A stretch of 64,000 bases of DNA from Octopus vulgaris (taxonomy: Eukaryota). Location of the stretch: positions 12,400,001 to 12,464,000 of the forward strand of contig OX597826.1 of the NCBI GenBank assembly GCA_951406725.2, given 5' to 3'. The translations under genes and the position numbers were made by a program. This document shows positions 36,875 to 46,547 of the stretch, piece after piece. Below the pieces are notes generated by a model. It made no database searches, had not been told where the DNA came from, and was given only the letters and a program-made list of their open reading frames with translations. Numbering within the stretch: position 1 is the first letter of the stretch; each line of letters opens with the position of its first letter.

Positions 36875-37066
36875 ATTGATGAATGAATTATCCTTTGTTT
36901 ACCGTTAACATGGAAAATTCAATAAACAGTTACCAGGGTAGCAAAATTCACGCAAGTAACACGGGTGTAGCGACCTATTCAAAGGAAGAAATTCCGGGTT
37001 AGTGTGCAGCAATTTGTGTATTATAAGTAAATAAATGGAGTTGAACGAAGAATTAAAATTCTTTTA

Positions 37067-37148
37067 CTTTCGACATATGTTTCGAAGACAACATGGTTTT
37101 ATTCCAAACGAATAAACGGTGTAAAATGCAATCTTCTCATCAGGAAAG
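37067..37148 (-). ncRNA. Type I hammerhead ribozyme (PLE-type)
   Basis: Inverted copy of 37217-37298 with intact core. Confidence 0.8.
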
Positions 37149-37216
37149 AAAGAGACATTATAAACAACAAGACATTATAACAATTACGATGGCTGCCTAA
37201 ATGATAAACTCTCTTT

Positions 37217-37298
37217 CTTTCCTGATGAGAAGATTGCATTTTACACCGTTTATTCCTTTGGAATAAAACCATATTGTCTTCGAAACATATGTCGAAAG
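37217..37298 (+). ncRNA. Type I hammerhead ribozyme (PLE-type)
   Basis: ctttc CTGATGA gaaga [loop with tttattcc/ggaataaa hairpin] tcttc GAAA catatg TC gaaag; predicted cleavage after C37293. Confidence 0.85.
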
Positions 37299-38065
37299 TA
37301 AAAGAATTTTAATAACATCTTCGTTCAACTCCATTTATTTACTTATATATATTTATATATACGACGGGCTTCTTTCAGTTTCCGTCTACCAAATCCACTC
37401 ACAAGGCTTTGGTCGGCCCGAGGCTATAGTGGAACACACTTGACCAAGGTGCCACGCAGTGGGACTGAACCAGGAGCCATGTGGTTCGTAAGCAAGCTAC
37501 TTACCACACAGCCACTCCTACGCCAGTATAAAATTTTTTTTTTAAAGTTGAAATTTTATAGGGGAGAGTTATAGGCCTCTTGTTATGTGAATATGCCTGC
37601 AGCAGTGTGTGTGTCTGGAATGTGTTTGGCTTTGTAGAATTGGCTCAGGTATGGTAAATTTTTTTCGGGAACTGGGCCGCGTGAGACATGGCTGATAATC
37701 ATGTGGGCCGCACAGCTAAAAAATATTCAAGGAAATTTGAGTTAGGTGTTCCATTCGGAAGTTCAGTTTGTGAATCTTGACACTCCTACACGTACTTACA
37801 CAAGAACGCATGCGCACATGCATGCATGCGCGTGTGTGTGTGTGCGCAAGTGTGTGTGTATGTTGTGTGTTGCGTACTGTGTGTGTGTGTGTGCGTGTGT
37901 GCGCGCGCGTGTGTGTCTGTGTGTTTGTGTGTATGTGTGTGTGTGTGTGTGTGTGTTTGTGTGTGTGTGAATTGTGTGTGAATATATCTTTTACCTTTCA
38001 CGTTTTTTCTTGTACCTCTCTTTTGACTGCGGTCATGCTAGGACATCGCCTTGAAGGATTTAGAC

Positions 38066-41112: not shown

Positions 41113-42431
41113 TATATGTATACATATATATATATATATGTGTGTGTGTGTATGTGTGTATGTATAGCTAGATAGATAGATACATGCATATATGGGTACA
41201 GGACATTAGCAACGGTACAAATAACATGAAATACGTAAAGAAAGGAGTTAAATACGTTTTTGGTCTAACGACACTTCATGTTTCGTTTGCATTCGGTTTC
41301 CTTGCATGTCTTCACTCTCATGTTTTTGTTCCCAACTTTGACTCTCCATTGATCCTAAATTTTATTTTAGAATTTATAGGAGCAACTGTCTGTGAAGCAA
41401 TTGTCGTTGAATGTTCGAAATGAGTAGCTAAACAGCCGATTATTGATGAAAGGTAATTTTTCAATGTTTACTTGTCCTGCTTTCCAATTTTGTTTACACA
41501 TTCAACTCGTTTGTTTACGCATTTTATATTATTTGCAAAGCTAGTGATGTCCTCTACTCATATATGCATGCATATATATATATTATATATTATTTACTGT
41601 TGTTCAACTGAACGCGACGTATCCATTTCCAAGTAAGTTGAGAAACGTATTAATGCGTAGCATTTATATACATAGATAGTTACATATTGTACGTGTGGGC
41701 GTGTGCGTGTCTGCAATCGTGGCCTTAGAACAAAAGCACATTTAATATATATAGATATATGTTACATGCAGAACTTGGACAGATTTTGATGATGCACGCT
41801 ATGTCTCTAAATGTCCATACGTCTTAATGTTTGTGTTTTGTAACTGTAGTGACTCGTGTATGTGTGTATATACATATATATATATATATCAATAATACAG
41901 TGATTGTTTCTTATCAGGAACAAAATGTTTAATAGGACTGCTATAGAAATGCTCAATTGAATGAGACAAATATATCAAACTAAAGTTACAGAACAAACAA
42001 ATGCAAGGTCATCCATATAACATTTCATAACTCGAACATTTAATCATAGAACATACATTTATGACATCACGGAAGATGAAACATAACTCATCTGTACAAG
42101 CATATAAGAAAGTGCGAGAAAAAAAGTGTGAATACAGTTCATCACGGTTAATGTTAATACTTTAGCGATTAAGAAATATATATTTTTTTAAAAACCTTAC
42201 AACACCTAGAAAATAAATACGTAAAAATATAGTATAAAGTAATATATAAATATATAGGTATATATAAAAATATATATATATATATAGGAAGCATATAAAT
42301 AAGTAATATATAATGTAAAAATAAAAGTTCATCGTTTAGAAAATCTTTTTTTTAAAAATTACTTTTCAAATAAAGGAAACATATAGTTAAAAACCAGTGT
42401 CCAAGCAAAGAAAGAAGAAACCATATTTACA

Positions 42432-42513
42432 TTCCCTATGGCCATTTCAGGGGTACTTTACTGTATTTAAAGCACTAGGGTGCATCACAGTAATAACTCC
42501 TTCGTCAGGGGAA
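42432..42513 (-). ncRNA. Type I hammerhead ribozyme in PLE 3' terminal region
   Basis: ttccc CTGACGA aggagt...acccct GAAA tggcca TA gggaa; about 280 nt downstream of the GIY-YIG stop. Confidence 0.85.
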
Positions 42514-42789
42514 ACAATAGAGAGACAGGCATCATCCCGTACCGGGGCGAGACCTCCTTAACTAGACTTAACACAATATTGTGTGCTTATTTATTGAAGA
42601 AGTTATGCTTCGACGAGCCAAAATGAAAGAATTAGAGCAGTAAAAAAAAACAAAAAAAAAACCGTTAAAGTTTAAAAAAATTTTTTTTTAATATAAATTA
42701 AATTAAATTAAGAAGAAAAAAAAATGGGTGTATTAAATTAAATTAAATTCAACCTCCGTGGTTTCAATTCCCTGTAAGAGCTAAATCAT

Positions 42790-43230
42790 TTATTTGCTAC
42801 AACTTATTTTATTCCTATACACTTTTAAGAATGTAGATGAAAATTTATGGATGCAAAAAGGAATCACGTCAGTAAATTTATTCAGAGTGTGTGGTCCATA
42901 ACACCTAAGGATGGTAAGGGATTCCCTTATGCACAGCTTACACTTGTTAATATTTCCCTTGAAATTTGGGGTTTTAGAGACAATGGACCATTCTAGATAA
43001 TAATTCTTATTATTTTTCTTCAAATTATGTATATGGGATGCAAGTGTTGTAGAATTACAATATTTATCGTTAGAAAATGAGCTCATATGCAATCTATATC
43101 TAGCCTTAAAATCTACCGTGCTACCTATATACAATTTATTTAACTTATCCTCGTCCTTGACTACACATTTATATATGACGTTAGTAACTAGACAGGAACC
43201 AACTAAAGGACATAATTCGAGGTTTCTACA
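42790..43230 (-). pseudogene. Penelope-like element GIY-YIG endonuclease C-terminus (5'-truncated, uninterrupted 146 aa)
   Basis: CRNLELCPLVGSCLVTNVIYKC...LYIGSTVDFKARYRLHMSSF...STTLASHI...LEWSI...CKLCIRE...LNKF....FCIH. Confidence 0.88.
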
Positions 43231-43689
43231 AGATCAGACAAAAAGGATGTGTTTATTAATTGACATGAGTATTCCCTGTGATCACAATATAGCGGCGAAA
43301 GAATTTGACAAGATTATAAATATAAAGAACTGCTAATAGAAATTGAAAAAAATGTGGCATCTCAAGGCGACTACAGTACCAGTGATTGTAGGATCTCTAG
43401 GAATGATAAAAAAAGGTACTGAAACCTATTTGAAAATGATTCCAGGCTTACCATCCCTACAGAAAGGGTAAAAAACCGTATTAACTGGAACGGCTCATCT
43501 ACTGAGAAGAGCATAATCGCTGTGAAAACAACATCCATCCATGAATTTATTTATTTATTAATTTTTAAATACATATTTTATCTGTGAATTTGCGTGTGTA
43601 ATCTGGGAATGCATACAATGAGCTTCTCTGCCCTAGGTGTATGGAAAACACTCGGCGAGAAACGGAAGAAAATTTGAAGAAAGAAAAAA

Positions 43690-43752
<63 letters not shown>

Positions 43753-45628: not shown

Positions 45629-45690
45629 CATTATTGGTGAATTGAAGAAATGGAGCTGAACGCAGATTGAACAGAAATCGTTTTATTTCA

Positions 45691-45771
45691 TTCTACACGT
45701 GTTTCGAAAGGCACAAATTACCAAAATCCGATGGAATAATGGGACCATATTGCGTCTTTCTTCTTCAGGAA
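45691..45771 (-). ncRNA. Type I hammerhead ribozyme, inverted copy
   Basis: ttc CTGAAGA a gaaag...ctttc GAAA cacgtg TA gaa. Confidence 0.75.
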
Positions 45772-46256
45772 GAAAATAGGAAATCCGTTGGAAAAACAAA
45801 AACAGAACAGAGGCGGAGCAAAAACAAATCGAACTATGCTCCTAAGAGCCCATGGCGAAACTGTTTATCAGTGTATGTTGAGAACCGGTGGCTGAAGAAT
45901 TCAACGGGTCAGGCATCGGTCAATCATGTGGGTGAGGGGGCGTAGATGTTCTTTGTGACCGAGAATAAAGTTCTGACAATTTAAGGAATATTGGATGTTT
46001 TATAAATGTTTTATTGGATGTTTTATAAAACATCCAATATTCCTTAAATTGTCAGAACTTTATTCTCGGTCACAAAGAACATCTACGCCCCCTCACCCAC
46101 ATGATTGACCGATGCCTGACCCGTTGAATTCTTCAGCCACCGGTTCTCAACATACACTGATAAACAGTTTCGCCATGGGCTCTTAGGAGCATAGTTCGAT
46201 TTGTTTTTGCTCCGCCTCTGTTCTGTTTTTGTTTTTCCAACGGATTTCCTATTTTC

Positions 46257-46336
46257 TTCCTGAAGAGAAAGACACAATATGGTCCCATTATTCCATCGGA
46301 TTTTGGTAATTTGTGCCTTTCGAAACACGTGTAGAA
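46257..46336 (+). ncRNA. Type I hammerhead ribozyme (PLE-type)
   Basis: ttc CTGAAGA gaaagacacaa...ttgtgcctttc GAAA cacgtg TA gaa; predicted cleavage after A46333. Confidence 0.8.
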
Positions 46337-46547
46337 TGAAATAAAACGATTTCTGTTCAATCTGCGTTCAGCTCCATTTCTTCAATTCACCAATAATGTT
46401 CTAATTTCAATTATCCGCACCAACGCACGGTTGCAACACCATATGGTTGTACCTCCAACCGTGCTGTTTTACTGCTGTGATTTTTGCTACTAAGGTATCG
46501 GTTAAACTTTTGATTAATCTACTACAAGATTATTCATCTTTCTATTT

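Follow-up and report, generated by a model that had tools for sequence, protein, structure and literature searches.

A probable 5′-truncated Hydra-clade PLE in Octopus vulgaris with an open GIY-YIG endonuclease frame and a long-armed predicted hammerhead

Results

An endonuclease frame and a hammerhead motif lie on the same strand

The window analysed here is a stretch of 64,000 nucleotides from Octopus vulgaris (contig OX597826.1, positions 12,400,001 to 12,464,000), and all positions below are counted from its first letter. It is AT-rich animal-type DNA composed mostly of microsatellites and retroelement debris. The features annotated at the locus are given with the evidence used for each in brackets.

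43230-43690, plus strand: 3′ end, decayed, of a LINE that has a very high copy number and a restriction-like endonuclease tail, with (AAT)n at 43690-43752 (translation, contig depth)
43230-43231, no strand: junction, two bases (AA) common to the 5′-truncated PLE (minus strand) and the 5′-truncated LINE (plus strand), head to head (contig ends)
42790-43231, minus strand: end of a Hydra-clade PLE ORF encoding the GIY-YIG endonuclease, with 146 open codons and the stop, reverse transcriptase missing (translation, Pfam, phmmer, profile, contig ends)
42296-42789, minus strand: 3′ UTR of the element, with an approximate left edge (contig cover in four of four runs)
42432-42513, minus strand: type I hammerhead motif, predicted cleavage after A42437 (descriptor; a contig of another copy spans 42335-42565)
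42449-42501, minus strand: long stem II region with closing and inner helices of 3 and 8 bp and a terminal hairpin of 4 bp (predicted fold)
42242-42295, no strand: TA-rich tract with (TA)n at the 3′ end of the element, likely target site (sequence; contig cover drops here, though the tool skips the repeat)

The stop-to-stop open frame covers 43233-42790 on the minus strand, is 147 aa long and ends with the stop codon at 42792-42790. Its first codon (Ser) and the preceding stop sit in the adjoining LINE fragment; therefore, 146 codons, from Cys at 43230 to Lys at 42793, were counted as belonging to the element. The translation contains CPLVGSC (residues 8-14), VIY (19-21), YIG (35-37) and R45, followed by CKLC (98-101), E104, N118 and CIH (127-129). 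This agrees with the initial annotation, which had described a 146-aa stop-free PLE endonuclease with CPL.G.C, VIY, YIG, CxxC and CxH motifs. Between VIY and YIG there is a single Cys (C23) and no CxxC. The match to Pfam GIY-YIG was weak (E 0.0022, 18.7 bits, under the cut-off of 22.6). The element-derived part has no start codon and begins at the second Cys of a CxCX5C linker, of which CX5C is retained and the first Cys position lies beyond the truncation point. The full CxCX5C linker was present in the relative P0004 (described below) and in 94 of 151 proteins of the phmmer set. When the reverse transcriptase (RT) of the element was sought in the window by tblastn with P0004 and P0039, the sole match was the endonuclease frame. 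The frame had also been called uninterrupted, which holds for the endonuclease fragment and not beyond it, there being no RT in the window.

The element meets a decayed LINE head to head

The contigs of four runs were compared with 41900-43680 at 80% likeness; statements on individual pieces and differences below refer to the 32 of 9829 pieces and 40 of 188 differences listed. Contigs covered the element in all four runs from ~42320 up to the ORF, except for a skipped low-complexity segment at 42635-42757. Contigs on the element side end at 43231 and then continue with other letters. Those on the LINE side start at 43230, and loose ends before 43230 were found in all four runs (35, 15, 25 and 45 contigs). 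Since PLE contigs stop at 43231 and LINE contigs start at 43230, the two pieces meet head to head over two shared bases. No junction-spanning piece was among the contig pieces listed.

The translation of the LINE piece is interrupted by frameshifts and stops, and its motif is what we take to be that of an R4/Dong-like element. Contig depth over this piece was roughly 10- to several-hundred-fold that over the PLE, and the short piece gave no Pfam or PDB match. Dong-R4 elements are described as abundant in octopus in the relevant part of PMC13282606. Just past the 3′ end of the PLE, between two TA tracts, lies a further dispersed repeat (41895-42240), which was deeper than the PLE in four of four runs and is found just once in the window.

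The endonuclease is of the Hydra type

Where Craig et al. 2021 (PMC8557442) describe the Hydra clade, its endonucleases are without CCHH and have a CxCX5C linker together with CxxC and CxH motifs around the conserved E and N. Further traits named there are (TA)n targets, hammerheads and, in the RT, the motifs RWK and DKT. The window element is similar in all of these that it covers. CCHH is absent from its endonuclease, in contrast to the Neptune, Nematis and Penelope-Poseidon types; the CxxC and CxH around E and N are present (C98/C101, E104, N118, C127/H129); the linker keeps the CX5C part of CxCX5C; and the element has a type I hammerhead and, at this one site, a (TA)n tract (42242-42295) at its 3′ end. 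By its translation, the frame thus appears to have every Hydra endonuclease feature that it still contains. The RWR and DKT motifs were seen in P0004, and the corresponding region is absent from the window copy.

Relatives of the frame were identified by phmmer against 1.84 billion representatives, which gave 3351 matches at E <= 0.001. The top relatives were P0003 (57% identity), P0002 (65%) and P0004 (54%). YRDD was visible in 10 of the best 150 matches, most of the others being short. P0004 is the nearest full-length relative, with 806 aa and an endonuclease at 661-801 that is 54% identical to the frame, and it contains in order RWR at 37, DKT at 130, YRDD at 361, WFNPP at 553 and CxCX5C at 660. 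A search with P0004 returned 43 long proteins including itself, the next best at 38%. An endonuclease matching the frame was found in 38 of the 43 and was C-terminal with YRDD upstream in 34 of these 38; none of the 43 was nearer to the frame than P0004. Based on its motifs, the alignment and by-eye agreement with the published Hydra alignment, we classify the RT of P0004 as Hydra-type. The peptide had been proposed as a probe for full-length RT-EN copies, and it led to one at the protein level, in which a PLE RT is joined to a C-terminal endonuclease (EN).

A word-based protein search for longer relatives of the frame gave 0 of 117 candidates, which is weak evidence; longer relatives were later obtained in the exhaustive phmmer search. 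Pfam at E 0.01 returned no RT family in 11 long relatives, P0004 included, and a PDB sequence search with P0004 gave no match. An atlas search returned animal PLE-like clusters. No relatives were obtained with P0004 among metagenome contigs, or with P0039 and A3 among viral contigs. P0165, an RT fragment of the Hydra type from Argonauta hians, bears the name 'GATA zinc finger domain-containing protein 14-like' in its source, which is probably a mislabel.

To place the frame, we built an unrooted tree of 49 endonucleases comprising the frame, 15 chosen matches and every second of 66 endonucleases from the metagenome loci described below. The frame, P0004 and six close matches (8 rows) fell on one branch with support of 100/99 in a bootstrap that had not fully settled. 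This sub-lineage is set apart from the other sampled Hydra-type endonucleases, to which it is ~30-41% identical, the clade being taken as delimited in the relevant sections of PMC8557442. Judged from these comparisons, with the published references compared by eye, the endonuclease very probably belongs to a distinct sub-lineage of the Hydra clade of PLEs.

The same window contains another PLE-type endonuclease. An open 128-aa frame at 14210-14596 (plus strand) reads as a Neptune/Nematis-like GIY-YIG endonuclease, with a CxxC linker and a CxxC before YMG. No exact hammerhead core lies within ~360 nt downstream of it; a core-like string with one mismatch is found at 14670. The two frames are alike in being GIY-YIG endonucleases that end a PLE ORF. 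However, Neptune/Nematis-type endonucleases such as that at 14.2 kb have a CxxC linker and a CxxC between the tyrosine motifs, and the frame at 43 kb has neither. With a Hydra-type profile made from the 66 distinct locus endonucleases, the latter scored 116 bits and the 14.2-kb frame 10 bits, so the separation made between them in the initial annotation is correct. A Neptune type was rejected for the 43-kb frame on both grounds.

Another cephalopod Hydra family is Hydra-1_Obim from Octopus bimaculoides, for which the part of PMC8557442 that treats it also gives a (TA)n insertion and a 3′ hammerhead, with no pLTR noted. By eye, its start and RT motif B are similar to those of P0004. In contrast, its endonuclease is different throughout, with a long insert before YVG, and its published hammerhead differs in stems I and III and has a stem II of 22 nt. 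Because of these by-eye differences in endonuclease and hammerhead, the window element appears to be another family.

The hammerhead motif has an unusually long stem II region

The hammerhead core starts 282 nt past the endonuclease stop on the same strand. Stem I is formed by TTCCC (42513-42509) pairing with GGGAA (42436-42432) over 5 bp and is followed by the core CTGACGA (42508-42502), with GAAA at 42448-42445 and the palindrome ATGGCCAT at 42445-42438. Stem III would have 2 bp and a GGCC loop in the monomer and 8 bp in the dimer, the 8-bp palindrome duplex being calculated at -13.3 kcal/mol. The motif has the CUGANGA, GAAA and UH of a type I core, and stems I, II and III are able to form, with a constrained fold of -17.2 kcal/mol compared to -18.7 kcal/mol for an unconstrained fold without the drawn stem I. 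Folding of a 106-nt stretch gave z = -0.98. When the 495-nt 3′ region was shuffled 5000 times with dinucleotides preserved, a matching motif arose in 2 shuffles, and block-shuffled whole windows had a mean of 0.005 descriptor matches compared to 3 in the real window. These shuffles, together with the homologues, led us to reject a chance frame or a chance motif.

The stem II region is 53 nt long here and 10-30 nt in 45 related loci (see below), although the descriptor applied to those loci permitted up to 80 nt. Its predicted fold has -13.2 kcal/mol, and 11 of 500 shuffles were as stable. The pair 15.2-16.2 is U-A, which gives an AUA cleavage triplet, whereas C-G and GUH are found in 45 of 45 loci. 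Rfam (42000-43700, E up to 10) returned four matches, none of them a hammerhead family; over the whole window, the 150 matches listed of 217 were to microsatellite-driven miRNA and snoRNA only. The motif, its strand and its 5-bp stem I were as initially annotated. The term canonical, however, was overstated, because stem II is about twice as long as in any of the 45 homologues, 15.2-16.2 is U-A rather than C-G and there is no Rfam match.

The long arm was also seen outside this copy. The contig of another copy spanned 42335-42565 and differed by 14 substitutions and 8 gap letters. At position 42457, nearly all other copies (2173 of 2240 depth in run X3) have a base that would lengthen the inner stem II helix by one pair. 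On the basis of this contig and this base, the long stem II arm is a family trait. One contig each in runs X3 and X8 had a joint at 42464-42533 and represents a rearranged copy of the hammerhead region, apparently without the 5′ part of stem II.

We compared the motif with published hammerheads. A known hammerhead system shares with it the complete core, a helix I of 4-5 bp, a helix III of 1-2 bp and a small palindromic loop suited to dimers. Its helix II is 4-8 bp with G10.1-C11.1, in contrast to the A-U-closed, 53-nt multi-part arm in the window. In the Hydra rows of PMC8557442 File S2, compared by eye, stem II is ~24 nt or less, and stem III of the clade opens with AC...GU rather than the AU...AU of the window motif. 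Two spike-moss PLE-X rows in that file have loops of ~30 nt, meaning that a long loop II is not unprecedented in PLEs. In the literature searched, no long-stem II cephalopod PLE hammerhead was found, though such forms may already be present in Lunse et al. 2017, which covers PLE hammerhead variants.

Hammerheads follow the endonuclease in related loci

To examine the order of endonuclease and hammerhead in relatives, a metagenome scan was performed with a five-protein Hydra-type alignment, in which 426 stretches were confirmed and 79 loci kept. All 79 matched the frame at the protein level, and none matched the element at the DNA level by blastn. We set aside one locus with its best endonuclease match on the other strand and 18 with <250 nt downstream, leaving 60. 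A sense type I hammerhead was present downstream in 45 of these (39 distinct), at 101-549 nt beyond the end of the endonuclease match, and an antisense one in 2. Upstream controls had a hammerhead in 0 of 73. The descriptor detected no hammerhead in 15 of the 60 loci, 7 of which have <=402 nt downstream. Homologues lacking a PLE RT or a downstream hammerhead would have spoken against the original reading, which was not refuted: P0004 has a PLE RT, and three-quarters of the loci (45/60) have a sense hammerhead.

Other hammerhead-like motifs in the window

The window contains five hammerhead-like motifs, all with a stem II region of 53-56 nt. The other four form two inverted pairs, each with its own perfect 8-nt palindromes, and two of the four fail the strict descriptor. 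The arms of the first pair (37022-37161 and 37204-37347) are 94% identical over 144 nt and have one hammerhead each, with cores at 37143 (minus strand) and 37222 (plus strand), a 53-nt stem II region, the palindrome ACATATGT and a GUC triplet. This pair looks like the PLE-type inverted 3′ end of another family. The second pair (45630-46006 and 46022-46397) is 99.5% identical over 377 nt, has a 15-nt spacer and lies beside (TA)n. Its motifs have cores at 45768 (minus strand) and 46260 (plus strand), a stem II region of 55-56 nt and the palindrome ACACGTGT; the near identity of the arms suggests a recent insertion. Two further open frames, at 16552-17031 (plus strand, 159 aa) and 21802-22197 (minus strand, 131 aa), resemble C-terminal parts of RTE-type LINE reverse transcriptases.

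In blastn within the window, the four other motifs shared no match with the element, and the frame therefore does not tie them to a PLE ORF. The claim that this locus ties the ribozymes to PLEs directly thus applies to the hammerhead of the endonuclease-bearing element and not to the rest.

The lineage appears older than the copy

A young lineage, as initially suggested, was not borne out. The closest proteins are 44-65% identical to the frame and several have lost core residues, and the 14 contig pieces listed over the element, which are the longest rather than the closest pieces, have 6-18% substitutions. In run X3, at least 22 of ~810 comparable positions (at least 2.7%) differ from at least 70% of the depth of other copies. 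Assuming 0.05-0.10 indels per substitution, the probability that the 146-codon frame stays open is 0.24-0.40 at a neutral divergence of 3%, 0.09-0.22 at 5% and 0.02-0.09 at 8%. An old, diversified sub-lineage combined with a copy of low to moderate age is a fair reading of these data.

We also considered a young and recently active family, in which a Hydra source that is still active would have given rise to the copy recently, as its open frame would reflect. In its favour, the catalytic-type residues Y21, Y35, G37, R45, E104 and N118 are all kept in the frame, while the close relatives P0003, P0007 and P0011 have an altered YIG. Moreover, 6 of the 11 listed in-frame differences from other copies are synonymous compared to 27% expected (binomial by hand ~0.05 for a selected subset), pointing to selection in a source lineage; two runs contain 0.41 of the sampled 31-mers; and O. 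vulgaris has 31 recently active PLE families according to the part of PMC13282606 on this species. The divergence just described argues against it, both that at 22 or more positions in X3 and the 6-18% of the contig pieces, as do the adjoining frameshifted LINE piece and the protein searches, in which nothing exceeded 65% identity and no long protein was nearer than P0004. We regard such a family as rather unlikely. The copy itself is possibly a fairly recent one of an old lineage.

Discussion

Collectively, these results suggest that the locus very probably holds the 3′ 0.94 kb of a Hydra-clade PLE, an open endonuclease domain followed by a hammerhead motif, which likely arose by 5′-truncated retrotransposition into a TA repeat. 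The copy would be unable to move by itself because it is without a reverse transcriptase. Following established PLE biology, a full-length source element would have made a single RT-EN protein, whose endonuclease would have nicked the (TA)n tract and whose RT, primed there, would have copied the RNA from its 3′ end. Synthesis ending at the linker, or later decay, may have produced the 5′ truncation. The hammerhead is predicted to cut the element RNA after A42437, ~140 nt before its 3′ end. As stem III of the monomer has only 2 bp, cutting is predicted to depend mainly on pairing through the 8-nt palindrome between two copies of a tandem transcript, and a lone copy like that in the window would have almost no activity. 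The long stem II is probably a peripheral extension that the ribozyme tolerates.

The join of the PLE to the LINE likely reflects end joining guided by microhomology, whether during insertion or in a later deletion. It could be imagined instead as a single chimeric insertion, in which one break would have primed two different retroelement RNAs, one on each strand, the PLE at TA and the LINE at TAA, and their cDNAs would have annealed over 2 nt. Both pieces are indeed 5′-truncated, and they abut head to head with 2 nt in common and no filler between them; each also has its 3′ end on its own kind of microsatellite. However, a deletion between two older neighbours, or the insertion of one beside the other, would look alike in so repeat-rich a window, an AA overlap of 2 nt is common by chance in AT-rich DNA and the LINE piece is apparently more decayed than the PLE piece, making a joint event quite improbable. 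The hammerhead, for its part, might derive from a separate non-autonomous ribozyme repeat (retrozyme or SINE-like) that came to lie beside the endonuclease by chance. Contig depth in X3 was 3330 over the hammerhead and 507-1702 over the endonuclease, and the other hammerhead motifs in the window have no adjoining endonuclease; for endonuclease-hammerhead linkage in other copies, none of the contigs listed bridged the low-complexity gap at 42635-42757. Yet 5′ truncation is expected to raise the cover of 3′ parts, no tandem array is present at the locus, and the strand, the order and the 282-nt distance from the stop are within the range of the 45 relatives. We therefore consider a separate origin highly improbable. 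A non-LTR retrozyme, consisting of non-coding tandem repeats with a hammerhead per unit, was rejected as well, since a single motif lies behind a coding frame and has no second copy in the window. That the frame is a domesticated, stand-alone GIY-YIG gene held open by host selection would fit its openness and intact core residues, but it begins at a repeat junction, a stop precedes the domain, no start codon lies before it (Met first occurs at residue 50) and the frame belongs to a set of many dispersed copies; the likelihood of this is close to negligible.

The link between PLEs and hammerheads is itself not new, as it has been published (PMC4209133, PMC8557442), including for Hydra elements and an Octopus family. 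Cervera and de la Pena 2014 (PMC4209133), in the parts concerned with PLEs, report hammerheads in the flanking repeats of all PLEs examined, with a short palindromic helix III. Dimer dependence of such motifs is also reported there, a Schistosoma example being inactive as a monomer and of low activity as a dimer, and the dimer model is summarised in a section of a review (PMC6765202). In the sections of PMC8557442 on ribozymes, hammerheads are universal in Hydra, another Octopus Hydra family is listed, and the role of hammerheads for EN+ PLEs is described as still open. A 2026 preprint (10.64898/2026.07.22.740005) derives animal retrozymes from PLE repeats; parts of PMC6155905 and PMC8967140 served as background only.

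The new findings are modest and comprise a distinct sub-lineage of Hydra elements and a hammerhead whose stem II region is 53 nt long and whose cleavage triplet is AUA. Their value lies in adding to the Hydra clade a sub-lineage that has one full-length representative (P0004), and in a hammerhead variant overlooked by standard searches. With its long stem II, AUA site and perfect dimer palindrome, this natural variant is a convenient construct for comparing monomer and dimer cleavage and for examining the role of the peripheral arm. The sole lead that merits follow-up is the long-armed hammerhead common to three repeat families in the window. Since three unrelated families within 64 kb have a stem II of 53-56 nt and a perfect 8-nt stem III palindrome, we speculate, at low probability, that the PLEs of the host genome share a distinct class of long-armed hammerheads, in which the arm would be a selected module, serving either as a tertiary contact that licenses cleavage or as a handle for the RT-EN protein. 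If true, neither Rfam nor descriptors limited to short stems would detect this class, and thousands of ribozymes would be uncounted in cephalopod-type genomes.
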